DNA from: Bdellovibrionales bacterium RIFOXYD12_FULL_39_22
GTDB taxonomy: Bacteria > Bdellovibrionota > Bacteriovoracia > Bacteriovoracales > Bacteriovoracaceae
Length of the DNA: 41,748 bases
Direction of reading: 5' to 3'
Assembly (NCBI GenBank): GCA_001770205.1
Contig: MEQL01000040.1
Coordinates: forward strand, 62,001 to 103,748
In this document: piece after piece, positions 1-41,748 of the stretch
How positions within the stretch are numbered: position 1 is the stretch's first letter
Layout: each line of letters starts with the position of its first letter
Program-made: the position numbers and the translations under genes
The notes under the pieces: generated by a model
The model's database searches: none
What the model was told of the DNA's origin: nothing
The model's input: only the letters and a program-made list of their open reading frames with translations

Positions 1-1311
1 ATTATCCGCGATAATTTTGTTGATGTTATTATCACAGATTTAGTAATGCCTGAAATTGGAGGATTGGAGATTATTGAGAAGATTATGGCCCTAAAAGAGG
101 GCCATAGTTGTATTTTAATGACAAGCTTTCCCTCTATCGAATCGGCCATACCCGCCTTGAAATCGGGAGCGGCCGATTATCTTATTAAACCTTTTACTCC
201 TGAACAGCTACTTCACTCGGTTCGTAGTGTTTTAAAAAAAGATCGCTTGGCCCGAGATAATAGATTTTTGCGCGCCGAAATGGAACGTATTGGCCACTAT
301 GGGGAGTTGATTGGCAAAAGTGATGTCATGAGAGAACTTTATCGCCAGTTAGAGTCGGCCAAGGGAATTGACTCAAGCATGTTAATTTTAGGAGAGAGTG
401 GAACTGGTAAGGAGCTGGTGGCCCGCATTTTACACAGAAACTCTATTCGTAGTGCGAACTCTTTTGTCCCTATTAATTGTGCTGCTATTCCGGCCGATTT
501 ATTGGAGAGCGAACTATTTGGCCATGAGGTGGGTGCCTTTAGTGGAGCAGTAAAGGCCCGCGAAGGATTATTTGAGGCCGGAGAAGGCGGAACTATTTTT
601 CTTGATGAGATTGGAGAGATGCCATTGGCCTTACAGTCTAAATTATTACGGGTATTAGAAGATAAGAAAATTAGACGAGTGGGGGCCAATCGAGAAAAGG
701 CCATTAACGTAAGGATTATTTCTGCTACCAATCGTAATCTTTTAGAGATGGTGAAAGAGGGGAAGTTTCGCGAAGATCTCTATTATCGCTTAAATGTTAT
801 TTCTATGGCCATACCACCATTACGAGAACGTCGAGAGGATATTATTTTATTGCTGCAACATTATTTTTCCGTATTTGCTAGCAAAGATCGGATCGCGCCC
901 AGCAAGATTAGCACTCAAGTGCGCGATGCCTTGCTAAAATATGCTTGGCCGGGTAACGTAAGAGAGCTTTCTAATTTGGCCCAGTTTTTATTGTATGCTA
1001 GATGTGGGGAGAGTGTGGAAGTAGAGCATCTGCCCAAGCAATTGCAGGCCATTGTCGAGCAGGCAAATGAGGAGTCGTTTGTGCAAGAGCGTTCATCATC
1101 TCAACTATTGGTAAATGATTTTTCTGCACTATATGATTTGCCTCTGGCCGAGGCCAAGCAAAAATTGGCCGATCATTTTGAAAAAAATTATATCAAAAAT
1201 TTACTTATTAAATATGATTGGAATGTATCTCAAGCGGCGGAAAAGTCCAGGTTTGATCGACGCTCTCTTCATCGTATTATTCATCGACATAATTTAAAAC
1301 GGCCAGAGTGA
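1..1311 (+). CDS. Sigma-54-dependent response regulator (NtrC family: REC-AAA+-Fis HTH), 5' end outside window
   Basis: Frame open from base 1 (IIRDNFVDVIITDLVMP, receiver Asp); Walker A GESGTGKE; GAFSGA loop; FLDEIGE; FREDLYYRL; WPGNVREL; C-terminal HTH. Confidence 0.95.
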   Translation: MIRDNFVDVIITDLVMPEIGGLEIIEKIMALKEGHSCILMTSFPSIESAIPALKSGAADYLIKPFTPEQLLHSVRSVLKKDRLARDNRFLRAEMERIGHYGELIGKSDVMRELYRQLESAKGIDSSMLILGESGTGKELVARILHRNSIRSANSFVPINCAAIPADLLESELFGHEVGAFSGAVKAREGLFEAGEGGTIFLDEIGEMPLALQSKLLRVLEDKKIRRVGANREKAINVRIISATNRNLLEMVKEGKFREDLYYRLNVISMAIPPLRERREDIILLLQHYFSVFASKDRIAPSKISTQVRDALLKYAWPGNVRELSNLAQFLLYARCGESVEVEHLPKQLQAIVEQANEESFVQERSSSQLLVNDFSALYDLPLAEAKQKLADHFEKNYIKNLLIKYDWNVSQAAEKSRFDRRSLHRIIHRHNLKRPE

Positions 1312-1320
1312 AATTGGGGA

Positions 1321-1704
1321 CTATTTTAAAATGGCCTTGATGACGTTTTCTAGCTCGGAAGGGCCGTAGGGCTTCGGAACAATGAAAGAGACTCCATTTT
1401 TTTTTAATCTCTCGGTTTCTTCTTCGGAGAATGAATTACCAGTACAAAGAACTATTGGAACAGAAGCGTTGAGCTTATGTATTTCTGTAGCGAAGAGATC
1501 ACCGCGCATAAATGGCATAGATAAATCAGTGAATACGGCCAAGTAGTTAGTTGGGGAAGACTTAAACTTTGTTAATGCCTCCGTGGGGTTTAGATGAACC
1601 TCCACTTCATAACCCATATCTTGTAAAAAGAGCGTGGCAATTTCGGTGATATCAAACTCATCGTCAACAAACAAGATAGTCTTTTTGGAATGTGATTGGC
1701 ACAT
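1321..1704 (-). CDS. Single-domain response regulator (receiver)
   Basis: ILFVDDE, TDLSMP, LCTG and PKP receiver motifs. Confidence 0.92.
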   Translation of the reverse strand: MCQSHSKKTILFVDDEFDITEIATLFLQDMGYEVEVHLNPTEALTKFKSSPTNYLAVFTDLSMPFMRGDLFATEIHKLNASVPIVLCTGNSFSEEETERLKKNGVSFIVPKPYGPSELENVIKAILK

Positions 1705-1734
1705 AATTAATTATTGATCAGATCCAAAAAGAAG

Positions 1735-2934
1735 TCATCCTATTTTTTCTTTAAAAATAAGCTCACACGCCTGTGAGTAGGAGTGCAATTGTTGTTGGAC
1801 AATAATATTTAAAACCGCTTGATGAATTTGCGCGGTCTTTTGGGTGAAAAAATTAGAGATAGTTTGGAAAAAATACTCTTCATTTTTATTTAAGTGCAGG
1901 CCTTGTTCTTCAACAAATGCCATCAAGAGCGGTGCAAGGCCGGTTAGTTCAGAAGGAATGAATATTTTTTCCATAGATAATCTTAAGACAGCTTCTGCGG
2001 AAAAAAGTGATAACTTGCTATGATCAAAAATATATTTACAAGCAGAGTTAGAAATAAAATTTTCAGGAGAAAACATCTCTGAAGAACAGAAAAAAATCAT
2101 ATCACAATCTAGCTTTTCTGTTCCAGAGAAAGAAGTGGCAATCAGAGTTGGTATTTTTAATGCTGCTTCTGTAAAGCTGCAACGACGGTAATTAAGAAGG
2201 CGGTGTAATTGAGATAGTTCTTCTAGGGAATTTTGTTGTTTGAAAAGTAGGGTCTCTTGGTTTTTTATTAGCGCTATTATTTGAGCGTTAGAGCTGGCCA
2301 GCGTTTTTGCCAAAGCAAAGGCATTAAAATCTGTTCCCACAATTAGACAGCGTTTTCCGGCCAGATTATCTGCTAGATTAGTTAAAACACTTTTTGCCAG
2401 ACATCCAAGATAGATGCCAATATATTCTGCTTTTAGTGGGACTCCTCCGAGATCAACACTCTTTCCTAAAATAGTAGGAGATAGCGTGTTGATATCGGAT
2501 GGTGGAAGGTTGGCAATGAGAGCATTAATTTCACGAGTAGATACCCCATTATCTGCGCAGATAATATCTCGAGTATAATCATCACAGTTGTCCAAGTACG
2601 CTAGAATGAAGTTTTTACAAAAGGACTTAATTTCTTCCTCGGAGTGGCCTTTGGTTTCAAAATCAACAGCACAAAAACTGGATGCCCAGGGGAGTTGAGA
2701 GAGAATTAGTTTTTTTAAATTTTCGTAGGCCCATGCTTGAGTCATCTGGCCAGTTATTGAAAGATGAAAGCGCAAGGGAACCAGAGATTTAATGGAAGAA
2801 GCTAAGTTATATCCATCTATAATGGCGCGATAGGCGTTGCTAGTTTTTAATTCTTTGCGATCATTTTGCCACTTAACTTGAAAGTTAATAGTGTTGGAAG
2901 AAAGATAGTTGTTAGGGATATTTGAGTTATTCAT
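1735..2934 (-). CDS. Glutamate dehydrogenase (GdhA)-like protein with degenerate catalytic and NAD(P)-binding motifs; probable pseudo-enzyme
   Basis: Collinear with GdhA blocks (FQVKWQND, LRFH, LP...DFETKGHSEEEIKSFC, D-x-GVSTREI, LGKSVDLGG, CDMIFFC). GGGKGG is replaced by ASSFCA and GxGNVA by GTDFNA. Confidence 0.8.
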   Translation of the reverse strand: MNNSNIPNNYLSSNTINFQVKWQNDRKELKTSNAYRAIIDGYNLASSIKSLVPLRFHLSITGQMTQAWAYENLKKLILSQLPWASSFCAVDFETKGHSEEEIKSFCKNFILAYLDNCDDYTRDIICADNGVSTREINALIANLPPSDINTLSPTILGKSVDLGGVPLKAEYIGIYLGCLAKSVLTNLADNLAGKRCLIVGTDFNAFALAKTLASSNAQIIALIKNQETLLFKQQNSLEELSQLHRLLNYRRCSFTEAALKIPTLIATSFSGTEKLDCDMIFFCSSEMFSPENFISNSACKYIFDHSKLSLFSAEAVLRLSMEKIFIPSELTGLAPLLMAFVEEQGLHLNKNEEYFFQTISNFFTQKTAQIHQAVLNIIVQQQLHSYSQACELIFKEKIG

Positions 2935-5863: not shown

Positions 5864-5884
5864 GCTGAAGTCCTACTTAGATGT

Positions 5885-8788
5885 TTATAGTCCCATTTTG
5901 TGCAAATATTTGGCAAATGCCATTTCCCTAGCATCAGGAGCAACAATTGCTTTTTTAACTTTTAATTTCGAGACCTCTTTACTAATGCCAGAAGTAGCAT
6001 CAATGCCAGAAAGTTTTGCCAAAAGCTCTGCAATAGTTGGTTGTGAGGATTTTATATCGCTGGCCAGCGGTCTGACTACTCCATCTACATTCAAAAAGCT
6101 TCCGTTGCGCTCTAATTGATCTAGATGATGCAAATAGCTGTGTGCCTTAGTTCCTATCGCAAAATTAGAAATGGCCACTACTGGAATTGAGCGTGGTAGC
6201 TTTTTAGATAAGTATGCACCTAAGATGATGGCCCCATCTGCTTTGTTAAAATTGGTTTTTGTATTGGCCGGTTTGGCGCCTATTTTTTCTAAAAATGCCA
6301 CGTTCGTCACTCCAGGAAGTTTTGCAAAAAGATGTTTCTCTTTTCCCTTACGCTTGGGGTCCGTAAGATAGAAGAGAGTGCCTTTTAATTTTTGGGCCAA
6401 CTTGCCTGCGGCCGCTAGATCTTCTAATGCCAACCAGGGGGAAACAAAGATTGCCGGTTTTTTCATCTTAGTGATAAGTTTTTTTGCGTGAGAGATGCTT
6501 TTGTTGCTATTTTCTTTATTTAATTTGTATTTGAGTAGAGCATAAGAGAAGCGTCCTTCTTTGCATATCACTCCGCCATTTACTTTATCATTGGCCACTG
6601 AAGAGGCCTTGATTATTTTTTTCTCATCTACACTACTTACTTGTAGGGCGCAACCTCTTCCACATGCCGTACAGGTAGTGATTGCTTTGGGGCCTTCCCA
6701 TACTCCTTCATATTTGGAGTGATTCATTACGATAGTACCAGTTGGACAAACATCAATACACATTCCACAGGCATCACAATCAGTAGCTTGAAGTGGCCGT
6801 TCAAAATTAGGCGCGATATGAGTTTTAAATCCGCGATCAACAAAAGAGAGCGCAGAAATTTGGCGAACTTCGTTGCAGACGCGAACACAGCTGCCGCAAT
6901 TAATGCACTTCTCACCCTCGAAGCGAATAAGTGGGTGACGTTTGTCTATTTCTGGTTGATTCTTCTTTCCGGGCATTATGGTTTCGCAAGCACCATATTC
7001 AGTAGAGTAGTCACGCAAACTACAGTTAAAACGCGCAGAGCAGCCACATTCAATGCAACGAGATGCCTCGGCCATAGATTGAATTTGAGTGAGTGATTCA
7101 TTGATCGGGGCATATCCGCCATTGGCCAATCTTTTATCGGCCTTATAGATAATTTCTTTTTGTCTTTTCTTTTGCTCAAACCGGGGAGCAAAATCTTCGC
7201 GCTCAAGTTCTTTTATCCTTCCTTTAGAGATACGATACTCTTCTCGAAATTTTATGTCGGCCCCATTTAAGTATAACGAGATGGCGTCGGCGGCAATTTT
7301 ACCTTCTGCACATGCTTGGACGACGGTATTCGGGCCAAAAGAGCAATCGCCAGCAGTAAAAATTCCGGGAACTTTAGTTGTCATGTTTTTGTTATCATAA
7401 ACAACTGTTTTCCACTTAGTGGTTTCTAGTTTGATTGGATCTTTTTCCAGGCAGGCAACTTCTGGATCTTGGCCGATAGCACTAATAATTAAATCAAAAT
7501 CTAAATCTTTCTCGCTACCAGGTACTTCTTCAGGTCTCCGTCGGCCGGAAGCATCAGGCGCTCCTAAGCGCATTTGGGCAACTTTTAGAGCACGAGCACG
7601 GCCATCACTACCAACTACCACCGCCTTTGGTGCGGTCAAAAATTGAAAGTGTACTCCTTCTTCATGACACTCTTCTTGCTCATGTTTAAGTGCGGGCATC
7701 TCCTGCTGAGTTCGGCGATAAAGCAGGTGGACATCCATATTGGGTGCGAGCCGTTTTGCCACTCGAGCACAGTCCATGGCCACGTCTCCACCGCCTACTA
7801 CTGCTACTTTGCGGCCATGTTTTATCTTCTCTCCCAAAACAACTTTACGTAAAAACTCGACTCCGCCTAAAATGCCGTCTACTTGTTCATTTTCAATTCC
7901 CATTGGTTTGGAGACTTGAGCTCCGATTGCAATAAGTACTGCATCGGCCCCTTTTTTTTGTAAATCAGCGATGGAGAAATCAGTTCCCAAACGCTTATTG
8001 GTGTGAACTTTTACTCCTAAATCGATAATGGATTTGATTTCTGAATCTAGCTTATTCCAAGGAAGACGAAATTTGGGGATACCATAGCGAACCATTCCTC
8101 CTAACTGAGGAAGTGCTTCATAGAGGTCTACCGCATGGCCATGTTGACGCAAGTAGAAGGCCGCCGATAGGCCGGCCGGGCCGCCGCCTACGATGGCCAC
8201 TTTTTTTCCACTTTCTTTTTTACACTCCGGTAAAAAAGGTCCGGCCTGAATATCGTATTCGGAAGCAAACCGTTTAAGTGCACGAATGGCAATGGGTTCA
8301 TCCACTAATCCGCGGCGACACTCATTTTCACATGGATTTGGACAAATAGTTCCGCAAACCAATGGTAAGGCCAGGCGCGATTTAATTAGCTTGATGGCAG
8401 AGACAAAATCCCCGTTGGCAATGTGTGCTACATAACCTTGTACATCGGTGGCCGCAGGACAGTGCACTTTGCATGGTGCTAGACAATCCCCGGAGTGATT
8501 AGAAAGCATCAGATCCAAACACATTTTTCGAGTGCTCATAACCTTTTCGCTGTTAGTTTGCACTTCCATATTGGGTGCCACTTTTGTACTACAGGCGGGG
8601 ACAAGGGTACGTGCACCCTTGACTTCCACTACGCAGATGAAGCAGCTAGCAAAAGGTTTCATTCGATCATCATAGCAGAGTGTAGGAATATCTACTCCTT
8701 GCTGTCGGGCCACTTCCAAAATGGTTTGATCTTTTTCGGCCTTGATAATTTTTCCATTGAAGTTGATATCTATTTTATTGTCGCTCAT
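5885..8788 (-). CDS. NuoG/GltD hybrid flavo-FeS oxidoreductase (StnC/NfnA-like large subunit)
   Basis: N-terminal 2Fe-2S (IPTLC...CFICVV...PAC); GltD-like CLAPC/CP, GGGPAG, GGGDVAMD; 4Fe-4S motifs CINCGSC and CDACGMC; CTACGRGC; short degenerate C-terminal Mo-fold region. Confidence 0.88.
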   Translation of the reverse strand: MSDNKIDINFNGKIIKAEKDQTILEVARQQGVDIPTLCYDDRMKPFASCFICVVEVKGARTLVPACSTKVAPNMEVQTNSEKVMSTRKMCLDLMLSNHSGDCLAPCKVHCPAATDVQGYVAHIANGDFVSAIKLIKSRLALPLVCGTICPNPCENECRRGLVDEPIAIRALKRFASEYDIQAGPFLPECKKESGKKVAIVGGGPAGLSAAFYLRQHGHAVDLYEALPQLGGMVRYGIPKFRLPWNKLDSEIKSIIDLGVKVHTNKRLGTDFSIADLQKKGADAVLIAIGAQVSKPMGIENEQVDGILGGVEFLRKVVLGEKIKHGRKVAVVGGGDVAMDCARVAKRLAPNMDVHLLYRRTQQEMPALKHEQEECHEEGVHFQFLTAPKAVVVGSDGRARALKVAQMRLGAPDASGRRRPEEVPGSEKDLDFDLIISAIGQDPEVACLEKDPIKLETTKWKTVVYDNKNMTTKVPGIFTAGDCSFGPNTVVQACAEGKIAADAISLYLNGADIKFREEYRISKGRIKELEREDFAPRFEQKKRQKEIIYKADKRLANGGYAPINESLTQIQSMAEASRCIECGCSARFNCSLRDYSTEYGACETIMPGKKNQPEIDKRHPLIRFEGEKCINCGSCVRVCNEVRQISALSFVDRGFKTHIAPNFERPLQATDCDACGMCIDVCPTGTIVMNHSKYEGVWEGPKAITTCTACGRGCALQVSSVDEKKIIKASSVANDKVNGGVICKEGRFSYALLKYKLNKENSNKSISHAKKLITKMKKPAIFVSPWLALEDLAAAGKLAQKLKGTLFYLTDPKRKGKEKHLFAKLPGVTNVAFLEKIGAKPANTKTNFNKADGAIILGAYLSKKLPRSIPVVAISNFAIGTKAHSYLHHLDQLERNGSFLNVDGVVRPLASDIKSSQPTIAELLAKLSGIDATSGISKEVSKLKVKKAIVAPDAREMAFAKYLHKMGL

Positions 8789-8827
8789 ATATTCATTTTC
8801 CTTTCTTACTATAGATTTTTGCTAAAA

Positions 8828-10609
8828 CTAAAATACTCTAATGGCATCTGTTCTACATACTTCTAAGCACATTCCGCAATTGATACAAACCTTTTTATCA
8901 ATTACAAAGGAGCCCAACTGTTTAGGGGTTCCAGAAATGGCACCCACAGGACAGGCCTTTTTGCAAATGCTGCATGCCGTACATTTATCGCTCATGATTT
9001 CGTGGGTGATAAGTTTTTTACAAACTCCGGCACGGCATTTCCTATCCTTAATGTGCTCGATATACTCCTCTTTAAAATATTTCAAAGTGGTGAGTACTGG
9101 ATTGGGGGCAGTTTGCCCTAATCCACAAAGACTTGAGGTTTTAATTTTTTCTGCTAAATCTTCCAACTTGCCTAAATCTTCCATAGTTCCTTCACCATCG
9201 CAAATTTTGGTGAGGAGCTCTTTCATGCGTAAAGTTCCAATCCGACAGAAGGTACATTTGCCACAAGACTCTAGCTGAGTAAATTCTAAAAAGTAGCGTG
9301 CTAAATCCACCATACAGGTTTTTTCGTTCATGACAATCATGCCGCCAGATCCCATGATGGCCCCGGTGGCGTTGATAGTGGCGTATCCAATTGGAGTATC
9401 AAAGAGGGCCTCGGGAACACATCCTCCAGAGGGGCCTCCTAATTGCACGGCCTTTAATTTGCTGCCATCGTGAGATCCTCCGCCAATCTCTTCTAACACT
9501 TCACGAATTTTCATTCCCATGGGAACTTCTACCAATCCACCTTTTTTAATGGCCCCCGCCAGAGCAAATACCTTAGTTCCGCGAGATTCTTCTGTGCCAT
9601 ATTTGGCGTATTCGCTGCCACCTTTGGCCAAAATCCATGGGAGGTTGGCCAGAGTCTCTACGTTATTAATGATAGTTGGAGATTCAAAGAGACCTTTAAT
9701 GGCCGGAAAGGGAGGCCGAATGCGTGGCATTCCGCGTTGCCCTTCGATAGAAGCAATAAGCGCAGTCTCTTCTCCACAAACAAATGCCCCGGCACCTTGT
9801 TTAATTTTAAGATTGAAGGAAAAATTAGATCCTAAAATTTTACTGCCCAAAAATCCTCGCGCTTTGGCCGCCTCGATAGCAATACCAAAATTTTTCACTG
9901 CCAAAGGATATTCTGCGCGGATGTAGGCGTAACCATCAGAAGCACCAATAGCATATGCTGCTATCAACATCCCTTCCAATACGCTGTGCGGGTCACCTTC
10001 TAGCAAAGAGCGATCCATAAACGCGCCTGGGTCACCTTCGTCACCATTGCAGATTAAATACTTCTTTTTACCTTCTGCACCTCGGGCAAAAGTCCATTTC
10101 ATATGGGTAGGAAAACCCGCTCCGCCACGTCCTCTCATTCCAGAGATTTTTACCTCTTCAATAACTTTTTCAGCGGCCATTTTGGATTTGATAATTTTAG
10201 AAATGGCCTCGTATCCTCCGCGTGCAATATACTCGTCGATAGAGGTAGGATCTAACATTCCGACGTTGCGAAGTGCAATACGGGTTTGTCTTTTGAGATA
10301 CAATCCACCCTCTAATTGAGGAGAGTCTGTAGAGCTAAGTAACAATGCAGTCGGGAGTGCTCCCGATCCGCGATGAAAGTCTAAGATTTGTTGAATGTTT
10401 TTTGGGGCAAGTTTTCCATACATAAAACTTTTTTTGGCCCCATCAATAATTTCGGCAATAACCTCTTGATGGCACATGCCTACGCAACCGACGCTTCTTA
10501 TTTTAGCAGTGGGCGCTAGATTTTTAAAGGCCTCTAAAACGGCCAGAGATCCTGCTGCTTTGCCACAGGTTCCTTCTCCTACAATGATTTCTAAATTTTG
10601 ATCACTCAT
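8828..10609 (-). CDS. NuoF/HydB-like NADH-binding FMN subunit with C-terminal 2x[4Fe-4S]
   Basis: GMRGRGGAGFP, CNGDEGDPGAFMDRS, GAFVCGEETAL, GGPSGG, ESCGKCTFCR, CTACSIC and CINCGMC. Confidence 0.95.
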   Translation of the reverse strand: MSDQNLEIIVGEGTCGKAAGSLAVLEAFKNLAPTAKIRSVGCVGMCHQEVIAEIIDGAKKSFMYGKLAPKNIQQILDFHRGSGALPTALLLSSTDSPQLEGGLYLKRQTRIALRNVGMLDPTSIDEYIARGGYEAISKIIKSKMAAEKVIEEVKISGMRGRGGAGFPTHMKWTFARGAEGKKKYLICNGDEGDPGAFMDRSLLEGDPHSVLEGMLIAAYAIGASDGYAYIRAEYPLAVKNFGIAIEAAKARGFLGSKILGSNFSFNLKIKQGAGAFVCGEETALIASIEGQRGMPRIRPPFPAIKGLFESPTIINNVETLANLPWILAKGGSEYAKYGTEESRGTKVFALAGAIKKGGLVEVPMGMKIREVLEEIGGGSHDGSKLKAVQLGGPSGGCVPEALFDTPIGYATINATGAIMGSGGMIVMNEKTCMVDLARYFLEFTQLESCGKCTFCRIGTLRMKELLTKICDGEGTMEDLGKLEDLAEKIKTSSLCGLGQTAPNPVLTTLKYFKEEYIEHIKDRKCRAGVCKKLITHEIMSDKCTACSICKKACPVGAISGTPKQLGSFVIDKKVCINCGMCLEVCRTDAIRVF

Positions 10610-10660
10610 ACTTTTCTACCTTCTTTTCTGCATTTAATTGATACTATTTTTTTTAATTTT

Positions 10661-11164
10661 CTATTTAATAGTTTCATTACTGTTTTTGGCGTGTCTCGAG
10701 AGCGTTTTGCTGGCCGAAGCGCCGGTTAACTCACCGTAAACTTCATTGTCAATGACCATGACTGGGGCCAAACTGCAACAACCAACACACGCGACATCAT
10801 TGAGAGTGTAAGCGCCATTGTTAGTAGTGTCTTGGCCTTTAGGAATTTTTAAATCGTTGGTAATGGCGGTATTTAGCTTGTCGGCACCGCGCACATGACA
10901 GGCGGTGCCATGACAGATTTTAATTAGGTGTCGGCCTACTGGTTTAAGTCGAAACTGGGAGTAAAAAGTGGCAACCCCATAGAGTTGAGAGCCTGTTATC
11001 TGGCTATTTTCTACTACTAAATCCATGGCCTTTTGTGGCAGGTATCCGTAGGTTGATTGAATTTCTTGCAATAGTGGAACGGTAGCAGACGGTTCTGTGC
11101 CGATTTTCTTTATCCACTGCAAAATTAATGACGGGTCTACATTGGCCTCAAGGGATTTCTCCAT
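10661..11164 (-). CDS. NuoE/HydC-like 2Fe-2S subunit
   Basis: YGVATFYSQF, CHGTACHVRG, ACVGCCSLAP; AGGAGG RBS upstream. Confidence 0.95.
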   Translation of the reverse strand: MEKSLEANVDPSLILQWIKKIGTEPSATVPLLQEIQSTYGYLPQKAMDLVVENSQITGSQLYGVATFYSQFRLKPVGRHLIKICHGTACHVRGADKLNTAITNDLKIPKGQDTTNNGAYTLNDVACVGCCSLAPVMVIDNEVYGELTGASASKTLSRHAKNSNETIK

Positions 11165-22552: not shown

Positions 22553-22674
22553 AATGTGCCTCACTGGTTTAACTAGTGAGTAGCAAAAAAGAGGCCGGCC
22601 GGTCATCGATAACTGGGCGTATTTTGGTTTAGGCCAGAGAAGAAAATGTATAGAAAAAAATATATGTCAAAACT

Positions 22675-24075: not shown

Positions 24076-24162
24076 ATTACCTCCAAAAAAAATAAAAAGA
24101 AAGTGCTCCCATGAAATGGTAGTGTGGCCTTAACCCTTTAGCAAGTTGCATGAGAGAACTTT

Positions 24163-25687: not shown

Positions 25688-25705
25688 TGGCCGGCCACTA
25701 TATTC

Positions 25706-26558: not shown

Positions 26559-26585
26559 TAATGAGGGATGGAATTTTGCCGATAG
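26559..26585 (+). promoter_or_regulatory. Sigma-28-like promoter facing the methyltransferase gene
   Basis: TAAT-N15-GCCGATAG, near consensus. Confidence 0.55.
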
Positions 26586-26611
26586 GCCCATCATTAACAA
26601 AAGGGGGGCAG

Positions 26612-27409
26612 ATGGGATATTTATTAGAGAGTAATGATGAAGCAAAAAGGTTAGAATTTCAGGCCAAACAGAGAAGTTATCTATTAGAAGGTGAAATGCA
26701 AATTCTTAGCAAACTTCCCTTGGCCGCCAATGCCAGCGTTTTAGATGCTGGATGTGGCACTGGATTAGTTTCTCGTTTTATAAAGAAGGTGCGGCCAGAT
26801 TTATTCCTAGAGGCCTGTGACTTTGCAGATATACGACTCAAACAGGGTGATATTTTTGCTCGAGCAGAAGGTATTTCAGATATCTCTTTTTTTAAGGCCA
26901 ATTTAGAACAGATTGAGCGTGCGGATGCTTCGTATGATTTAATAGTTTCGCGTTATGTTTTTGAACATTTATTAAATCCACAGGCAGTGGCCCATGAACT
27001 TTTTCGTCTGGCCCGACCTGGGGGATCTATTTGTTTAATAGATTTTGATGGTATTTTCGCAAATTTTTATACTCCCAATAAAGAAGTAATGAAAATGTTA
27101 AATAAAATTATGTCGGTATTGGAATTTGATCTTTTTATTGGAAGAAAGTTACCAACACTTTTACATTGCGCAGGTTTTTCCAACATTGAATGGGAGGTCT
27201 CTACTTCATATTTTAAAGGTGATGAGCTAAAAGAAGAGTATGAAAATTGTAAAGAACGACTTTCCTTTGCTCGACCTAAAATTGTGCAGGCACTAGGAAG
27301 TGATGGTGCTGCCGATCAATTTACAAAGTTATATCTGGAGGAAATGCAGCGGCCACACACTACACTATTTTATAATAAATTTATTACTCAAGGATATAAG
27401 AAGTTTTGA
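26612..27409 (+). CDS. Class I SAM-dependent methyltransferase
   Basis: VLDAGCGTG, YDLIVSRYVFEHL, RPGG, IGRKLP. Start ATG 26612 after AAGGGGGG; the ORF track gives 26561. Confidence 0.92.
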   Translation: MGYLLESNDEAKRLEFQAKQRSYLLEGEMQILSKLPLAANASVLDAGCGTGLVSRFIKKVRPDLFLEACDFADIRLKQGDIFARAEGISDISFFKANLEQIERADASYDLIVSRYVFEHLLNPQAVAHELFRLARPGGSICLIDFDGIFANFYTPNKEVMKMLNKIMSVLEFDLFIGRKLPTLLHCAGFSNIEWEVSTSYFKGDELKEEYENCKERLSFARPKIVQALGSDGAADQFTKLYLEEMQRPHTTLFYNKFITQGYKKF

Positions 27410-30338: not shown

Positions 30339-31349
30339 ATGAGAAGGATCTCAGAATATATGTCACAACTTTGCGATTCATACAAAAGACGTTTAAATTA
30401 TTTGAGATTGTCGTTAACAGATCGCTGTAATTTGCGTTGCTCATACTGCCGGCCTTTTGAAACAGCTTCAGACAATGAGATGGCAGGGCCACTTACCCCG
30501 AGAGAAATTGAAAATTTGGCCCGGGCCTTGGGCCCACTAGGTATATGCAAAATTCGCTTAACCGGAGGAGAGCCCACGTTGCGTCGCGATCTGTTAGATA
30601 TTGTGGCAACACTAAACTCTGCAGGCCATTTTGAAAAAATTGCGCTCTCAACCAATGGGGTTTTGCTTAAAGATTTGGCGTTCGGCCTAAAAATGGCAGG
30701 AATTAACGCCATCAACATAAGTGTGGATACTCTTGATAGAGAAAAATTTGCGAACATTACTGGGTATGACAAATTGATGGATATCTTGCACGGGATTGAG
30801 GTCGCCTTGACTGCTGGAATTACCTCCATAAAAGTTAATGCTGTCTTGATGAATGGTATAAACGATGGTGATGGAATAAATCAATTTTTACAGATGGTAA
30901 AGGTATGGCCTATTTCAGTTCGTTTTATTGAGCTAATGAAATTGGGCGTTAACGAGTCTAGTTTTGCCGAGAGGTATTTATCTCCTTTGTCGATAATTGA
31001 GCGATTGGAGCTAGATGGTTGGGTGGCCCAGAATCACCGCTTGTCTACTGATGGGCCAGCGCAAATTTTCCGCCACCATGATTTTCGCGGGAGTGTCGGT
31101 TTTATTCTTCCGTATAGTAGAAAATTTTGTGGAGAGTGTAATCGTATCAGAGTTGATAGTCGCGGCCGTCTGAGAACTTGTTTGTTTGGAAAAAACGATT
31201 ATTCATTAAGAGATTTGTTACAAAAAGAGGAGATGCGTTCACATCTGCAGGATAAAATATTATCGTTATTAGATTTAAAACCCAAAGAGCATCATCTTGA
31301 AATGGGGGATGCTGGTAAAGTAGATGGGCTGGTTTCCATCGGAGGATAG
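30339..31349 (+). CDS. moaA: GTP 3',8-cyclase MoaA
   Basis: YLRLSLTDRCNLRCSYC, RLTGGEP, FCGECNRIR..TCL, C-terminal GG. Start could be 30360. Confidence 0.96.
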   Translation: MRRISEYMSQLCDSYKRRLNYLRLSLTDRCNLRCSYCRPFETASDNEMAGPLTPREIENLARALGPLGICKIRLTGGEPTLRRDLLDIVATLNSAGHFEKIALSTNGVLLKDLAFGLKMAGINAINISVDTLDREKFANITGYDKLMDILHGIEVALTAGITSIKVNAVLMNGINDGDGINQFLQMVKVWPISVRFIELMKLGVNESSFAERYLSPLSIIERLELDGWVAQNHRLSTDGPAQIFRHHDFRGSVGFILPYSRKFCGECNRIRVDSRGRLRTCLFGKNDYSLRDLLQKEEMRSHLQDKILSLLDLKPKEHHLEMGDAGKVDGLVSIGG

Positions 31350-31354
31350 GGAAG

Positions 31355-31711
31355 ATGAATGTACGTTTTTCTAGAGGTAAAATTCGTTTTCGCATAGACA
31401 CTGCGGAGTTGGATAGATTAATTGATCGATCGCCAATAGAGGAGAGCGTTTTTTTTGCTGCTGATGATTTTTTATACTTTACCATTATGAGTGTTGCTGG
31501 CGGCGATAGGTTGTTTAAAATATCTAAGCAGGGTAATAATATCTCTTTGGAGGTGTCTGCCTTGGCGTTGGAAAATTTAAAGTCAAATTTGGCCCATTCC
31601 GATTTTCTGTCCGATAGTATTTACTTCGCGGAAGGTAAGAGCGTCAAAGTTGTTTTGGAAATTGATTTGCATGATCCTATGCTAAAAAATAAAAAAGTGA
31701 ATAGAAATTAG
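31355..31711 (+). CDS. Small hypothetical protein within the Moco operon
   Basis: Tightly packed in the operon; MNVRFS..KIRFRID..EL N-terminus; no function recognised. Confidence 0.75.
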   Translation: MNVRFSRGKIRFRIDTAELDRLIDRSPIEESVFFAADDFLYFTIMSVAGGDRLFKISKQGNNISLEVSALALENLKSNLAHSDFLSDSIYFAEGKSVKVVLEIDLHDPMLKNKKVNRN

Positions 31712-31719
31712 GATTTAAT

Positions 31720-32664
31720 ATGACGACAAAACAAGAGACAGTGATGACCCATGTGGATGGAGATGGTAAGGCCCAGATGGTAGATGTTGCGGATAAGAAA
31801 GAAACTATTCGCGAAGCCTCGGCCTATGCACAGGTGAGATTATCTCCAGAGGCCTTTGCGGCAGTTGCAGAAAATAACCTCAAAAAAGGTGATGCGTTAG
31901 CAGTGGCCAAGTTGGCCGGTATCATGGGCGCCAAAAAAACTTCTGAATTGATTCCGTTGTGTCACAATATTTTTGTATCTAAAATTGATGTTGAACTATC
32001 ACTTAATGGCCAGGAAAAAAGTATAGAGATTGTATCTTCTGCCAAGGCCCAAGGACAAACTGGCGTAGAAATGGAAGCGATGATGGCAGTTTCTATTGCC
32101 GCCTTAACCATCTACGATATGTGCAAGGCCATTGATAAGGGAATTGAAATTTCCGCTGTGAGATTACTCTCTAAACGTGGTGGGAAGAGCGGAGAGTATT
32201 ACTATAAAGGGAAAGAAATTGCTGGCCGTGGTATGGTAGTTGCCATTTCTGTTAGTGAAACAGTCGGAGTGCAAAAAAGTAACGTTGAAGCTGCCGAGTT
32301 CGTTGTTGATCATGGAATCAAAGGTGATGCGCATGCAAAAAATTGGCATCGGCAAGTTAGTTTTTTGGCCCAGGAAAGTATTGATCAAATGATAAAAAAA
32401 GGTCTGACACATTTACGGCCAGGAAATTTTGCCGAAAATATTACCACAAAAAATTTGAATCTTCATAAACTTCCAGTTGGAACCAAAGTACAAATAGGCC
32501 GTGAAGTTACCATGGAAATTACTCAAATCGGGAAAGAGTGCCATTCCCGATGTGCAATTTATCATGCTGCAGGCGATTGCGTTATGCCTAAAGATGGTGT
32601 TTTTGCCAAGGTATTAAATGGTGGAATTGCTAGAGTTGGAGATGAGATAAGGATTATCACATGA
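31720..32664 (+). CDS. moaC: MoaC fused to a C-terminal MOSC domain
   Basis: MVDVADK, LIPLCH, TGVEMEA, IYDMCKA; then GDAHA, RQVSFL, GNFAENITT, TQIGKECH..C. Confidence 0.95.
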   Translation: MTTKQETVMTHVDGDGKAQMVDVADKKETIREASAYAQVRLSPEAFAAVAENNLKKGDALAVAKLAGIMGAKKTSELIPLCHNIFVSKIDVELSLNGQEKSIEIVSSAKAQGQTGVEMEAMMAVSIAALTIYDMCKAIDKGIEISAVRLLSKRGGKSGEYYYKGKEIAGRGMVVAISVSETVGVQKSNVEAAEFVVDHGIKGDAHAKNWHRQVSFLAQESIDQMIKKGLTHLRPGNFAENITTKNLNLHKLPVGTKVQIGREVTMEITQIGKECHSRCAIYHAAGDCVMPKDGVFAKVLNGGIARVGDEIRIIT

Positions 32665-33890
32665 TTTCATACCTCAACGCACTTTCAATTGTTCGCAATA
32701 GTGCAAACGGTTTTGCCTTGTGCCAAGAAACAGTTCCCCTTTTAGAATCGTTGGGACGAGTGTTGGCCGCGGATGTAATTGCGGATATTAATCTTCCTCC
32801 ATTTAATAATGCGGCAATGGATGGCATCGCTATATCTTACTCCTCCGAGAGAAGGTATTGGAAACTGCAAGGTGAGATCTCTGCCGGCCACTATATGGAG
32901 ATTTCGTCTCTACGAGAAGATGAGGCGGTGCAAATTATGACGGGTGCAAAACTCCCTTCGCAATGTGACACCATTATTCCCATTGAGGATTTGCAAATAA
33001 AGGGAGGTGGTGCCTCCTTGGCAGTGGATTTTAGGCAAATAAAAAAAGGCCAACACATTCGGCAGCAAGGTGAGGATTTGGCCAAAGGCCACAAGGCACT
33101 AAGTGCGCATTGCAAGATTTCTGCAGCACAAATACCTATTTTGGCCACCTGTGGCCTAGATTTTGTGCCAGTTTTTCGCAAACTTAAAATTGCTATTTTA
33201 TCAACGGGTGATGAACTAGTAGACATTGATAAAATTCCAACTGGTGATCAAATTAGAGTATCAAACCTATCATCACTTTCCGCCCTAGTAAGTAGCATCG
33301 GACATACTTCGATCAATTATGGTGTTGCGCGTGATGCGTTAGATGCACCGACAGGAGTGCTGTCCAAGATGTCAAAAATTTTGGAGAGCGATGTAGATAT
33401 TGTGCTTTTAACTGGTGGTGTTTCTATGGGTAAATTTGATTATGTAAGAGAGGCCATGGATTTACTAGGAGTACAATCACATTTTTGGCAGTCCATGATT
33501 CGCCCTGGAAAACCACTTACTTTTGGCACACATGAAAGTGCAAGAGGGCGAAAATTTGTCTTTGGCCTTCCGGGAAATCCCGTTTCTTGTTTTGTTAATT
33601 TTTATACTTATGTGGTGGCTTTGATAGATAGTATTACAGGAGTTGACGATAGCGTTAAGCGCGTGCGCGCGAAGCTTGTTAATGATGTTCGTAAGCGTGA
33701 TAATAAACGACATTTTATGCGTGCTAAATATTTTGTTGATCCAGAAAATGGAGAGTCTAAAGTTTTAGTATTATCAGAACAAACCTCTGGTAACTTATAT
33801 GGACTTGGCCAGGCAAATTGCTTGGCAGTAATTTTGGAGGATGTATTAAATCCTTCGGCCGGTGAGGTGTTAGAATGTATTCTGATATAA
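32661..33890 (+). CDS. moeA: Molybdopterin molybdotransferase MoeA
   Basis: PPFNNAAMDG, IMTGA, STGDEL, TGGVSMG, PGKP, GLPGNPVS. Confidence 0.96.
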   Translation: MISYLNALSIVRNSANGFALCQETVPLLESLGRVLAADVIADINLPPFNNAAMDGIAISYSSERRYWKLQGEISAGHYMEISSLREDEAVQIMTGAKLPSQCDTIIPIEDLQIKGGGASLAVDFRQIKKGQHIRQQGEDLAKGHKALSAHCKISAAQIPILATCGLDFVPVFRKLKIAILSTGDELVDIDKIPTGDQIRVSNLSSLSALVSSIGHTSINYGVARDALDAPTGVLSKMSKILESDVDIVLLTGGVSMGKFDYVREAMDLLGVQSHFWQSMIRPGKPLTFGTHESARGRKFVFGLPGNPVSCFVNFYTYVVALIDSITGVDDSVKRVRAKLVNDVRKRDNKRHFMRAKYFVDPENGESKVLVLSEQTSGNLYGLGQANCLAVILEDVLNPSAGEVLECILI

Positions 33891-34498
33891 CAGGTGTTAT
33901 TTTGGCCGGAGGAAAGAGCACGCGAATGGGCCAGAATAAGGCATTGCTGAAAATTGGTAACGAGTTGGCCATTGAACGAACTGTTAAAATGATGAGGCGA
34001 ATTTTTTCGCAACTTATCTTAATCACCAATACTCCTAACGAATATGCATTTTTGTCTCTTCCCATGTATTCGGACCTTTTTAAACAACAAGGCCCTTTGG
34101 CCGGAATTCATGCAGCATTAAAAAATGTTGAGAGTGAGAAAGTATTTATTATTAGTTGCGATATGCCTCTTATAACCGAGGAAACAATCCGTTTTATTTT
34201 AGATTACCCATCTTTTTTGCCAATTGTAGTTCCGAAGGCAGATGGTTTTGTACAACAGCTTTGTGGTATTTACTCTCGCTCGGTTGTGGAATTGGCAGAG
34301 GGACTTTTATCCTCGAGTGATGAAGAAGAGGGTCGAGATAAACATCAACACAAAAGAAAATGCAAAGTAATGAGTTTATTAGAGATGGCAGGTGCGACGA
34401 AAATTGAAATGGAACAGGAATTTGGAGATTATAAAGCGAACTCTTTTTTAAATATGAATCGCCTGGATGAATATGAGGCCATTTTAAAATTGATATAG
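33875..34498 (+). CDS. mobA: Molybdenum cofactor guanylyltransferase MobA
   Basis: ILAGGKSTRMG..KA, GPLAGI, SCDMP, FLNMN. Confidence 0.93.
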   Translation: MYSDITGVILAGGKSTRMGQNKALLKIGNELAIERTVKMMRRIFSQLILITNTPNEYAFLSLPMYSDLFKQQGPLAGIHAALKNVESEKVFIISCDMPLITEETIRFILDYPSFLPIVVPKADGFVQQLCGIYSRSVVELAEGLLSSSDEEEGRDKHQHKRKCKVMSLLEMAGATKIEMEQEFGDYKANSFLNMNRLDEYEAILKLI

Positions 34499-37468: not shown

Positions 37469-37491
37469 AATCTTGAGGGTTTTTTACCAGG

Positions 37492-38367: not shown

Positions 38368-38567
38368 AAATGACCTTCCTTGGTTTATTGTTGTCCGCAA
38401 AATTTATATGACAATCCTTCGTCACATTCATGCTTGTACATTGTTTCAGGTTTGCTTTTATTTTGTCAAAAAATAATTTCGCAAGTTAGAGATTGTTGGC
38501 CATTGATGGAGCGCCGAACACAGATATTAGGCAATAGTTGCCGAAAACAGTTTGAGTGAACTTCTTT

Positions 38568-39038: not shown

Positions 39039-39494
39039 ATGACAGAAGTATTATTGGAGCGTAATTATTGGAATGATTTTGCGGATATTTACCTGCAACG
39101 AGAGGATGTTAGTTTTTTTACAAAGAATATTTTGGTGGTTGATGATGATCAAGATTTTGCTTTGTACGTGAAAAAAGTGTTGAGTGATATAGAAGATTTA
39201 TCGGTTGACCTGGCCATTGACCATTCAGCAGCATGGAAATATTTGAACAGAAAGGATTACGATATGATTGTTATGGATATAGCAATGCCGTCAGTTAATG
39301 GTGTTGATCTTGCTAAGTCTATTACGGAGTGGTACCGCAAGGGGTTTCCGATTATTTTCGTTTCAGGAAATAGAGAGCGTAGAGTTGATTTAATTAGAAA
39401 AAAGTTCAACTCAAATCACGTTGATTTTTGCCCTAAACCGTTGGATAAAAATTTTTTCAAGTTATTGGTCAAACGTAGAATAAATAGCTGGTAA
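39039..39494 (+). CDS. Single-domain response regulator with N-terminal extension
   Basis: ILVVDDD, MDIAMP, VSG, PKP. Confidence 0.88.
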   Translation: MTEVLLERNYWNDFADIYLQREDVSFFTKNILVVDDDQDFALYVKKVLSDIEDLSVDLAIDHSAAWKYLNRKDYDMIVMDIAMPSVNGVDLAKSITEWYRKGFPIIFVSGNRERRVDLIRKKFNSNHVDFCPKPLDKNFFKLLVKRRINSW

Positions 39495-39512
39495 TTGATA
39501 TACTTTAGGTTA

Positions 39513-40178
39513 TTAGTTGTCGGCGGTTAGCTTGTATCCTTCTGCATAGATACTTTCAATTTTGATCTTTCCTTCAAAAATTTTCTTTCTTATGGATGTT
39601 ATATGATTATCAACTACGCGATCAGTTACATTTGCCTCTCCCCAGACGATATTGAGTAGACGATCCCTCGATACGACTTCTCCCTCGTGGGCAATAAGAA
39701 AATTGAGGATTTTAAATTCTTTGGGAGTTAAATCGATTGTTTTGTTGCTAATGGTAACGGAGTGAGAGGTAAGATCTACTTCTAGATTACCTATAAGTTT
39801 TTTGGTTTGAGTTTTGCTGCGTTTAAAGATGGCCTCGATCATGGCCAAAAGTTCTCCTAAATCAAATGGTTTTTCTAGATAGTTATCGGCACCAAGTTTA
39901 TAGGCCATGGTGTGGGCAGAGGAGCCTTTTTTTGAGGAGAGAATAATGATCGGAGTATCATTCAGAAAAGGGTGGTTGCGAAACTGGTTGCAGAACTCGT
40001 AGCCAGAAACGCCTGGCAGTTCCAGATCAAGAATTATCAAATCTGGCCGCTTCTCTTGTGCCATAGACATTCCGGCCTCTGCGTTATCGGTTGATAGTAG
40101 TTGATAGTTGTTGCTTAGATGTTTTTGTAAGAGGTGTCTAATTTCAATATCGTCATCAATGGCCAGAATAGATTTCAA
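39513..40178 (-). CDS. OmpR-family response regulator
   Basis: AIDDD, LDLELP, EKP; winged helix LTPKEF...RVVDNHITSIRKK; GGAGG RBS with TTG start. Confidence 0.94.
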   Translation of the reverse strand: MKSILAIDDDIEIRHLLQKHLSNNYQLLSTDNAEAGMSMAQEKRPDLIILDLELPGVSGYEFCNQFRNHPFLNDTPIIILSSKKGSSAHTMAYKLGADNYLEKPFDLGELLAMIEAIFKRSKTQTKKLIGNLEVDLTSHSVTISNKTIDLTPKEFKILNFLIAHEGEVVSRDRLLNIVWGEANVTDRVVDNHITSIRKKIFEGKIKIESIYAEGYKLTADN

Positions 40179-40440
40179 ACATCCTCCGTATTTTTAGCTA
40201 GTGAAGTTTATCGTGCATACTGGTTATCAATTACCAGATATTGTACGAGTGAAATTAATTGTACATCATTTTGATTATGCCTTGTGCGGTAGAAATTTCC
40301 AACATGGAAAATCAAAATTAACTTGAATTTAATTTTAAATTGGTATGATGAATCAATGCAAATAAAAATACAAAATTAACTTTTTTAGAGATTTTTTACC
40401 AATCTCCTGATATAAATATTCTCTGCTTTTAACTAATTGT

Positions 40441-40527
40441 GCCCAGGTGGCGAAATTGGCAGACGCACTACCTTGAGGTGGTAGCGCTGGCAACGGCGTG
40501 CTGGTTCAAGTCCAGTCCTGGGCACCA
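40441..40527 (+). tRNA. tRNA-Leu (anticodon GAG)
   Basis: Acceptor stem GCCCAGG/CCTGGGC, discriminator A and encoded CCA; anticodon arm CTACC-TTGAGGT-GGTAG; long variable arm; GGTTCAAGTCC T-arm. Confidence 0.97.
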
Positions 40528-40536
40528 ACTCATTGT

Positions 40537-40568
40537 AAGGGAACCACCACGGTTCCCTTTTTGTTTTT
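40537..40568 (+). terminator. Rho-independent terminator after tRNA-Leu
   Basis: AAGGGAACC-accac-GGTTCCCTT hairpin followed by a T-rich tract. Confidence 0.85.
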
Positions 40569-40576
40569 AGAATCAA

Positions 40577-41666
40577 CTAGTTGGCCTTCCTTTTCAAATG
40601 TAAGATTTCGCCAAAATCGTCGCGTAGGGGCATAATAGGGGCATTTTTTTCAATTTGCTCAGAATGGCCCACTCCAAAATCCATGAACTGAACTGACTTC
40701 TGTAGATGGTCTGATGAAAAGTGCGCATACCGCAGAGTCATCTTCACATCGGTGTGTCCAAGAATTTTTTGCAGGTCAAAAAGACTTCCGCCGCTCATCA
40801 TAAATTGCGAAGCAAAGGTGTGTCGCATGTCATGAAAACGAATTTTATTCTTAATGCCGGCCATATCCGCATTTGTGAAAGCGACGGTAGAGGTGGCCAT
40901 AATCCACCGGCGTTCCATCTTCCTCACAAAATACAAAGCGCGGATTGAGTTGTCTTCGCATCAGCCCCAGGAGCAGCGAGCGAACGGACATTGTCATTGG
41001 AATGATCCGCTTTAGTTTCGTTTTCGTTGTATCCTTCATTTCGTATTTATCGCGATTTCGAGTAACCGTGATTTGATTGAGTGCAAAATCAATCCGATCC
41101 CAGCACAGTCCACAAAGCTCACCCATACGCAACCCTGTGTGTAGTGCCACAAAAAAGAGGGGATAAAGAGTGTCGCGATTATTGGGCAGCAGGAATTGTT
41201 CAATCTCCTTTTTAGACCAATATGCATCACACTTTAATTCAGCTTTTTGCCTAGGCACAAACTCCCACGGGTTCCCAAAAATGATTCGTTTACGTCTGGC
41301 GTAGTTCAAAATACTCTTCACCATGCCGACGTTATTATTGATTCCTTTGGGTGCATGCTTGGTTTCTTTGAGCTTGGCAATCAGCCTCATTCCGTGTTCT
41401 TCGCGCAAATCTTGAATGTTTACTTTTCCAATGACCGGAAAAACATTGGCCCGCAGGAGCTGTTCATAGTGAATGAAGGTTCGATACTCCCGATTGGCCT
41501 TGATGTGTTCTTCCAGCCAAATCCTTGCATACTCTTCAAACCTTATCTTTGTTGTCTGCACAAGAGAGTTATCACCACTGGCCTTGGCATGTTGTTTTTT
41601 GCCCTCCATGGTTGTCTTCCAAGTTTTCGCGTCGGTCTTGCGGTCGAAATATGGACTAGCGCAAGT
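40577..41666 (-). pseudogene. Tyrosine recombinase/phage integrase, frameshifted and 5'-truncated
   Basis: HTGLRMGEL lies in ORF 40851..41609, while FHDMRH, LGH and TLRY lie in another frame (40577..40936). The shift is near 40860-40880. Upstream FDRKTDAKTW runs back to an in-frame TAA at 41667-41669. Confidence 0.88.
40625..40644. repeat. 9-bp direct repeat TAGGGGCAT x2 (11-bp period), candidate integrase arm-type sites
   Basis: TAGGGGCAT-aa-TAGGGGCAT about 100 bp from the tRNA 3' end. Confidence 0.55.
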
Positions 41667-41748
41667 TTACTAAACTAATACCACAAAACCGCAACAACCA
41701 TCTAGAATCATTAATCTAATTGGCACTTTCAAATGTATACTCTGAAAT

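Follow-up and report, generated by a model that had tools for sequence, protein, structure and literature searches.

An excess of GGCC and a scarcity of its transition variants throughout the genome of a member of the Bacteriovoracaceae that carries an orphan cytosine-5 methyltransferase

Over-representation of a word linked to a DNA methyltransferase is known from the Dcm/Vsr skew of Escherichia coli, and Methanobacterium possesses a GGCC system in which the methyltransferase M.MthTI is accompanied by Mig.MthI, a T:G glycosylase of the HhH-GPD type. Hosts of restriction-modification systems usually, if not obligatorily, avoid their own recognition site. Here, we describe a 41,748-base stretch of the genome of Bdellovibrionales bacterium RIFOXYD12_FULL_39_22 (the window; G000:C40:62001-103748, G000 being this assembly), in which GGCC is strongly over-represented and its single-transition variants (AGCC/GGCT at the outer position and GACC/GGTC at the inner one) are scarce, and we relate this bias to an orphan cytosine-5 (C5) methyltransferase encoded elsewhere in the same genome. 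The mechanism of very short patch (VSP) repair has been summarized in PMC12907096, which also describes a solitary methyltransferase of Caulobacter, ScmA, that occurs with an unlinked Vsr-like protein, VsrA. In cyanobacteria, the highly iterated palindrome HIP1 and the alternate HIPs are words of 6 to 8 bases found about once per kb, with orphan methyltransferases and a proposed repair-driven origin (PMC4390886), and GGCC itself is among the widespread methylated palindromes of this group, where M.Ssp6803II methylates it at N4 (PMC4390886 and PMC6105098). HaeIII fails to cleave GG(m)CC but still cleaves GGC(m)C, as stated in a note quoted in PMC6105098.

In the window (G+C content, 40.2%), we counted 355 GGCC sites, where mononucleotide composition predicts 67 and a second-order Markov model (Markov-2) predicts 208; the z-score under this model, +14.9, is the highest among all 256 tetranucleotides. 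At the other end of the ranking, GGCT was found 14 times versus 124 expected under the Markov model (z = -13.3, the lowest word) and AGCC 28 times versus 129 (z = -11.9), while GACC and GGTC were counted 35 and 45 times, respectively. GGCC was enriched in every 2-kb bin, from 2.96 to 8.24 times. A previous sequence-only reading of the window had reported 23 GGCC in bases 1 to 1320, where about 2 were expected, and none of the four variants; our recount of this segment (G+C content, 42.0%) gives the same 23 versus about 2.6 from composition, with AGCC, GGCT, GACC, and GGTC all at 0. Its remark that the variants stay rare over the first 5 kb while TGCC and GGCA are common holds as well, with 55 GGCC, 1 AGCC, 2 GGCT, 0 GACC, and 4 GGTC in this region, next to 23 TGCC and 14 GGCA. 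It had also pointed to four sites in noncoding DNA, all of which exist; those at 24126, 25689, and 38498 are free of open reading frames (ORFs), but the one at 22593 is within the final bases of an ORF call (21437-22606) and may be coding. Altogether, the ORF-free DNA of the window (2,216 bases) contains 9 GGCC versus 1.5 expected, and the four transition variants together appear 5 times versus 12.5.

The pattern reaches the whole assembly (3.95 Mb in 62 contigs, 39.2% G+C, 94.6% complete, with an estimated contamination of 1.36%), in which GGCC is the top tetranucleotide class and its transition variants are the two bottom ones. There are 31,190 GGCC sites, and the ratio of observed counts to the mononucleotide expectation (O/E) is 5.34; among the 136 reverse-complement classes, none exceeds GGCC in its Markov-2 ratio (1.82). 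AGCC/GGCT, with 5,358 occurrences (O/E of 0.30), has the lowest Markov ratio (0.215), and GACC/GGTC, with 7,319 (O/E of 0.40), the second lowest (0.65), while the double-transition variants AGCT, GATC, AGTC, and GGTT are near normal (0.59 to 1.04) and the remaining palindromes made of G and C only range from 1.0 to 1.6. Enrichment extends to all ten NGGCCN classes, being weakest in GGGCCC (2.5-fold) and strongest in TGGCCA (9.45-fold), and GGCT is depleted whatever the flanking base (0.18 to 0.39), so the unit is the tetranucleotide itself and not a longer repeat. The sites are dispersed, on average 126 bp apart, and all 762 nonoverlapping 5-kb windows are above 1.1 (median, 5.43; 5th percentile, 3.04). 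The positions of GGCC in the genome show codon periodicity and no further pattern, and we detected no local base skew within 400 bp of the sites. The normalized ratio of GGCC to its neighbors is 13 to 18 for the transition neighbors versus 3.2 to 3.7 for GGCA, GGCG, and GGGC. Counted on both strands, GGCC exceeds expectation by about 50,700 occurrences, twice the shortfall of the four variants taken together (about 23,500), which indicates that GGCC is a true attractor and not the by-product of the avoidance of other words.

Codon usage does not explain the bias, as the sequence-only reading had anticipated, since it is found in intergenic DNA, in all codon phases, and at synonymous sites. Using crude gene calls (3,094 nonoverlapping ORFs of at least 120 amino acids [aa], 88.8% of the assembly), the 442 kb outside these ORFs have an O/E of 5.27 for GGCC, 0.39 for GGCT/AGCC, and 0.56 for GGTC/GACC. 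Inside them, GGCC is 2.3- to 3.0-fold more frequent in each of the three phases than in a synonymous-codon shuffle that left all proteins and overall codon usage unchanged. The variants that can be changed silently almost disappear, with 372 NNG|GCT versus 3,150 expected from the shuffle and 422 NNA|GCC versus 8,921, while depletion is mild (0.77 to 0.85) where an amino acid change would be required. After a codon ending in G, alanine is coded by GCC in 62.1% of cases and by GCT in 1.3% (50:1), versus 30.8% and 33.5% after T and 31.4% and 30.4% after C; the share of GCA plus GCG remains at 36.7% after G, versus 35.7% and 38.2% after T and C. Similarly, the 4-fold degenerate base that precedes GCC is G in 58.7% and A in 1.3% of cases (46:1), versus 33.1% and 29.0% before GCA. 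At the inner position, glycine codons followed by C are GGC in 50.3% and GGT in 5.5% of cases (9:1), versus 18.4% and 19.9% for the same two codons when A follows. The shift is therefore confined to transitions, with the share of purine-ending alanine codons kept, which argues against both codon usage and a simple selection for the number of sites. With the Markov-2 and codon controls applied, GGCC still ranks at the top and its transition variants at the bottom, contrary to the outcome that the sequence-only reading had named as its refutation.

The Pfam scans of the 30 ORFs of the window revealed no DNA methyltransferase, vsr, or dnd gene, in agreement with the sequence-only reading, and the sole methyltransferase among them (26561-27409) belongs to a small-molecule class. 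The assembly contains a single PF00145 match (247.7 bits, at G000:C35:113156-114157), in a C5 methyltransferase with intact catalytic motifs (FSGAGG, GPPCQGFS, ENV, and QIGNAVPP) that sits among housekeeping neighbors, with an acyl-CoA dehydrogenase gene on one side and tRNA-modification genes on the other. We found neither a D12-class methylase nor an N4/N6 methylase above the curated cutoff in G000. No restriction partner of the methyltransferase was recognized; PF09556, the HaeIII-type endonuclease, had zero matches in G000, but also zero in all 14 control genomes. Orthologs with 46 to 61% identity are present in all 36 sampled genomes of the Halobacteriovorax/Bacteriovorax family, each from a different genus, while among 23 genomes from elsewhere in the phylum (13 families), none had a comparably similar enzyme and one had a partial match with 32% identity. 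The named homologs in databases are from Halobacteriovorax, Bacteriovorax, and Bacteriovoracaceae, and conservation in the family includes the variable target-recognition region, with a mean column identity of 68% among 19 sequences. We infer that this enzyme targets GGCC. The sequence-only reading had proposed a long-resident GGCC modification enzyme coupled to biased G:T repair, and the family-wide orphan C5 methyltransferase, together with a transition-specific bias at the DNA level, agrees with the first half of that proposal; its GGCC specificity and the repair enzyme did not come out of the analysis. The gene search that it had called for yielded this one methyltransferase, with no match in G000 for vsr or for DndC (TIGR03183), so the phosphorothioation of GGCC that it had mentioned has no support.

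The phenomenon is of a known kind, an excess of a palindrome linked to a methyltransferase, as in the Dcm/Vsr skew and in the cyanobacterial HIPs and GGCC (PMC4390886 and PMC6105098). What sets it apart is a target of only four bases, the magnitude of the effect, an orphan C5 enzyme found across the family, and the lack of a recognizable T:G enzyme. As in Dcm/Vsr bacteria, a C5 methyltransferase is present, its presumed target is over-represented, the C-to-T variants are scarce, and the shift is specific for transitions. Unlike in them, Vsr was not found in G000 and is limited to two of the 36 relatives, the word is a 4-mer with a far larger effect (about 50:1 at synonymous sites), and two positions are affected, the outer one most strongly. 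With the HIPs it shares the strong excess of a palindrome throughout the genome and the presence of a conserved orphan methyltransferase, but the word is a 4-mer every 126 bp and not a 6- to 8-mer about once per kb, and compared with the cyanobacterial GGCC system, the enzyme is of the C5 and not the N4 type and the lineage is Bacteriovoracia. Like ScmA of Caulobacter, it is a solitary cytosine methyltransferase of the core genome, whose repair partner need not be linked; however, a Vsr-like protein exists in Caulobacter, and the same Pfam searches found none in G000. M.MthTI with Mig.MthI likewise pairs C5 methylation of GGCC with a T:G repair other than Vsr, as would be the case here, although the sole HhH-GPD protein of G000 scores as an endonuclease III. 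Finally, unlike in the host of a HaeIII-type restriction-modification system, GGCC is 5.3-fold enriched and not avoided.

Within the family, the bias is widespread but uneven, as judged from about 4 to 35 kb sampled per genome and from relatives that are not independent data points. GGCC has an O/E of at least 2 in 26 of the 36 family genomes (range, 1.29 to 5.27) versus 1 of 20 from other families (0.70 to 2.10), and GGCT/AGCC is at or below 0.6 in 10 of the 36 versus none of the 20. In G003, a complete genome of 3.44 Mb of which 420 kb was sampled and whose methyltransferase is named Halobacteriovorax marinus SJ in the database, GGCC again ranks first (Markov, 1.85; O/E, 2.73) and AGCC/GGCT last (0.60), while GACC/GGTC is normal (1.02). 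Depletion at the outer position is therefore the core signature of the family, and G000 is the extreme case, which adds the inner position to it.

Close relatives of the enzyme are also associated with the opposite anomaly. G037, a genome of 0.9 Mb from the same order, has an intact ortholog of 345 aa (L124:7791-8828) in a housekeeping context, and in 440 kb of this genome, GGCC is the most under-represented word (Markov, 0.31; O/E, 0.28), with GGTC/GACC slightly up (Markov, 1.24). All CpG-containing words are strongly depleted in G037 too (O/E of 0.06 for CGCG). The closest homologs outside the class are those of the cyanobacteria Phormidium tenue and Pseudanabaena sp., with 47 to 48% identity over residues 24 to 394, and in the 21 kb around them GGCC is at 0.08 and 0.16. 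Both of these homologs have a conserved position near scpB, with no recognizable endonuclease neighbor. At the homolog loci of 72 other lineages, a survey that had no matched control set, GGCC has a median Markov ratio of 0.57, the lowest of 16 palindromes, and is at or below 0.5 in 28 of the 69 scorable loci; among the low-identity homologs, at least one is part of a BpuJI-type system, whose specificity is different, and we regard this survey as only suggestive of GGCC specificity. GGCC is thus the word that misbehaves, in opposite directions, wherever close relatives of this methyltransferase occur, which is circumstantial support for its specificity. The contrast with G037 suggests that the free-living predators possess a second function, missing from G037, that turns the decay of GGCC into gain.

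Table 1. Coordinates of the GGCC features of the window and of the methyltransferase genes discussed here
Feature	Position	Strand	Basis
Dispersed GGCC sites (355), few single-transition variants	1..41748	.	Counts and Markov-2 z-scores
Densest GGCC stretch (23, zero transition variants), in a sigma-54 activator gene	1..1320	.	Counts; Sigma54_activat at window:46-1311
GGCCGGCC, end of an ORF/start of an intergenic gap	22593..22600	.	Spot check
GGCC in ORF-free DNA 24076-24162	24126..24129	.	Spot check
GGCCGGCC in ORF-free DNA 25688-25705	25689..25696	.	Spot check
GGCC in ORF-free DNA 38401-38567	38498..38501	.	Spot check
Cytosine-5 DNA methyltransferase, 394 aa, outside the window	G000:C35:113042-114223	minus	PF00145
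212-aa ORF directly upstream of the methyltransferase, outside the window	G000:C35:114261-114884 (L002:9262-9900)	minus	Conserved ORF
Methyltransferase homolog of Phormidium tenue	L157:9989-11182		
Methyltransferase homolog of Pseudanabaena sp.	L158:9989-11176		

The bias is weak in recently acquired DNA. Seven of the lowest-GGCC stretches of G000 were inspected, among which C31 is an rRNA operon, C53 codes for Abi_C and SIR2_2, C46 for an Eco57I-type methylase, a BsuBI/PstI endonuclease, and GmrSD, C23 for DUF5906, an integrase, and SIR2_2, C16 contains cassette-like GNAT, glyoxalase, and Cass2 genes, C36 has zero Pfam matches, and C43 contains TPR and ExbB/ExbD genes. Such low-GGCC defense and mobile islands fit a slow process acting on resident DNA, although, given the estimated contamination of 1.36%, some of the small low-GGCC contigs may be misbinned. 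The defense island at G000:C46:1-8000 (L128) combines the N6 methylase of the Eco57I type and the BsuBI/PstI-type endonuclease with GmrSD, a type IV enzyme directed against modified DNA, and a RelA/SpoT-like protein; its GGCC is low (O/E of 2.1) and its GGCT normal (1.41).

For the direction of the change we relied on paralogous DNA within G000 (54 kb with 70 to 97% identity), as a metagenome scan for close relatives retrieved only the identical contig and relatives with 33 to 34% identity, and a search of sequencing runs (as contigs) retrieved the same organism only, with two low-share runs that consist of identical fragments and no diverged strain. The partner of GGCC is GGCT in 14 of 1,370 cases (1.0%), versus 344 of 7,565 (4.5%) for the control XYCC to XYCT, and that of GGCT is GGCC in 14 of 183 (7.7%), versus 344 of 10,183 (3.4%) for the control, in counts that are tiny, double-counted by symmetry, and saturated. 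This pairing hints that GGCC may be both protected from loss and gained at an enhanced rate.

The explanation that we favor, with a probability of roughly 0.55, is a methylation-linked, transition-specific drive toward GGCC by a VSP-like correction that works without Vsr and is tied to the orphan methyltransferase. G:T (and possibly A:C) mispairs located one position off GGCC would be resolved to G:C, so that GGCT/AGCC and, more weakly, GGTC/GACC would be steadily turned into GGCC and existing sites would be guarded against C-to-T loss, in a way that would resemble the VSP repair of Dcm/Vsr bacteria. A shift specific for transitions is what a biased correction of G:T (or A:C) mismatches predicts. 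Our choice of mismatch correction over other mutational processes as the driver is an inference, and so is the identity of the cytosine concerned. A more specific version, in which the family has a non-Vsr activity that corrects transition mismatches to GGCC and is either recruited by the methyltransferase or built into it, is put forward here as a tentative idea.

Several observations weigh against this drive, starting with the repair enzyme. Searches of G000 with the Vsr (PF03852) and DUF559 profiles had no match, with the controls detected, including Caulobacter, and the best hit in a tblastn of G000 with both Vsr proteins of the family has an E value of 0.42. Vsr is present in two of the 36 family genomes and missing from the strongly biased G021, G017, and G002. 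A point in favor of the drive is that, in G006 (62% G+C), a copy of the methyltransferase is immediately followed by a vsr gene (PF03852, E value of 4.9e-22; G006:C3, L030:942-1322). The single HhH-GPD protein of G000 is a canonical endonuclease III (246 bits versus a cutoff of 211.7) that retains the catalytic lysine context, with no second HhH-GPD match that could be a MutY-like adenine glycosylase, and its uracil-DNA glycosylases (UDGs) are an ordinary family 1 enzyme and a divergent family-4-like protein. A 349-aa protein matches NucS below the threshold (21.7 bits versus a cutoff of 24), nor did we identify a dedicated T:G repair enzyme of any other kind in G000. Concerning the target, the alignment of the methyltransferase with M.HaeIII is limited to the catalytic domains and does not extend to the target-recognition domain, a region that aligns instead with CmoX (8yf3). 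A Foldseek search of its AlphaFold model (predicted local distance difference test [pLDDT] of 85) against the PDB ranks 3g7u, DNMT1, M.HaeIII, and M.HhaI alike. CmoX is GpC specific (PMC12783734). The most depleted variants, GGCT/AGCC, are those of the outer C and not of the inner one. HaeIII-type enzymes methylate the inner C of GGCC, so a simple analogy with Dcm/Vsr needs further assumptions. In addition, 10 of the 36 family samples have an O/E below 2 although all 36 carry the methyltransferase, which is thus not sufficient for the bias, and CCGG is avoided around both cyanobacterial homologs just as GGCC is, which weakens the argument drawn from the anomalies near the homologs.

The family-4-like UDG (277 aa) was considered as a driver and rejected, as its presence in 14 of 24 sampled genomes from outside the family, next to 33 of the 36 within it, shows that it is not family specific; it spans the phylum, including families without GGCC bias.

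The main rival is a methyl-directed mismatch-repair ratchet, the model of Elhai for the cyanobacterial HIPs, in which a GGCC formed by a replication error on the new strand would be methylated at once, so that this strand would be taken as the template and the error fixed by general MutS/MutL repair. It needs no T:G-specific enzyme, which would account for Vsr not being found; MutS-domain proteins are present in G000, with three MutS_V matches; transitions are the commonest polymerase errors, which would explain their dominance here; and a mismatch at the outer position spares the inner target C:G pair, which would fit the stronger depletion at the outer position. However, MutH was not found in G000, and the model requires an enzyme that reads methylation and nicks DNA, to our knowledge known only from Dam/MutH bacteria. 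The source in which this model was published for orphan-methyltransferase palindromes names none beyond those bacteria either and predicts saturation at about 1 site per kb (PMC4390886), whereas the density in G000 is 1 per 126 bp. The ratchet is itself a hypothetical model, and we consider it unlikely here.

Selection for a high density of GGCC as functional marks (a self-label of the predator, sites for nucleoid proteins, or strand signals) is more doubtful still. Strong purifying selection acts on the methyltransferase throughout the family, the density of GGCC is even along the genome, and a predator has to handle foreign DNA, although this last point is speculative; yet at equilibrium such selection would lower all alternatives to the same degree, and the share of purine-ending alanine codons (36.7% versus 35.7 to 38.2%) and the gap between the ratios of the transition neighbors (13 to 18) and the others (3.2 to 3.7) are not what it predicts, nor is the lack of any positional pattern past codon periodicity or of local skew. 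About as improbable is a context-specific mutation unrelated to methylation, such as an adenine deaminase converting A to G in RRCC or a polymerase bias. AGCC and GACC both reach GGCC by A-to-G on one strand, and the fact that no repair enzyme was found speaks for it, but it gives no reason why the bias should follow a family in which all sampled genomes have the methyltransferase, or why anomalies of opposite sign appear near close homologs. The apparent protection of GGCC from loss in the paralogs, weak as that evidence is, does not fit it either, and no candidate enzyme was seen, although none was searched for. We give very little credit to the remaining options, namely, that AGCC/GGCT and GACC/GGTC are avoided as nuclease targets with a passive rise of GGCC, phosphorothioation, or codon usage. 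The four variants are indeed the most depleted words, but an excess of GGCC twice as large as their deficit contradicts a passive rise, DndC was not found in G000, and the bias is present in intergenic DNA and in every codon phase.

Whatever the driver, G000 is an unusually clean natural case in which codon choice is overridden by a bias in repair or mutation, as the use of alanine codons flips 50-fold with the base in front of them. The pattern points to an enzyme that is missing, that of a VSP-like correction without Vsr, and bears on the origin of the highly iterated palindromes of cyanobacteria. On the practical side, tetranucleotide binning and codon-pair statistics of these bacteria are dominated by one word, which should serve as a warning. 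We found no report of a GGCC bias for Halobacteriovorax or Bacteriovorax in open-access full text (supplements not covered), nor, in the same kind of text, literature joining GGCC with Vsr/Dcm for such a drive. As the cultivable Halobacteriovorax marinus SJ shares the signature in a weaker form, the hypothesis is directly testable. If the drive is real, no stronger example would be known in which a repair system exerts a molecular drive on a 4-mer across the genome, with synonymous and noncoding sites rewritten over evolutionary time to about 1 GGCC per 126 bp, and a non-Vsr activity, if true, would represent a new class of enzymes for sequence-directed mismatch correction.

Directly upstream of the methyltransferase is a 212-aa ORF whose predicted fold is that of an ABC-transporter-type nucleotide-binding domain (pLDDT of 87), with no Walker A motif in its sequence; it is a degenerate domain of this type. 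The protein nearly always terminates in Ala-Ala, resembling a degradation tag. True orthologs (E value of 1e-18 or better) are found in 19 of the 36 relatives, and the gene adjoins the methyltransferase in 13 of 29 loci. It was examined as a candidate repair partner and rejected as the driver of the bias, as it is missing from the strongly biased G021, G017, and G002.

Among hexamers, GAGCTC (392 versus 859 expected from a fourth-order Markov model) and GGATCC (414 versus 904) are the lowest in G000, which probably reflects the avoidance of SacI- and BamHI-type restriction sites. At the end of the window, there is an ORF of the phage integrase family (40851-41609, minus strand), and in the bin at 40001-41748, GGCC is less enriched (2.96) and the variants make up a larger share than anywhere else in the window, so this may be the start of an acquired element. 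The window also contains a three-gene cluster for an NADH-dependent oxidoreductase (5885-11164, minus strand), made of a 2Fe-2S thioredoxin-like protein, a Nuo51-like protein, and a 967-aa Fe-S/pyridine-nucleotide oxidoreductase, and a molybdenum-cofactor biosynthesis cluster (30339-34498, plus strand) with MoaA, MoaC-MOSC, MoeA, and MobA, both of which resemble ordinary metabolism.

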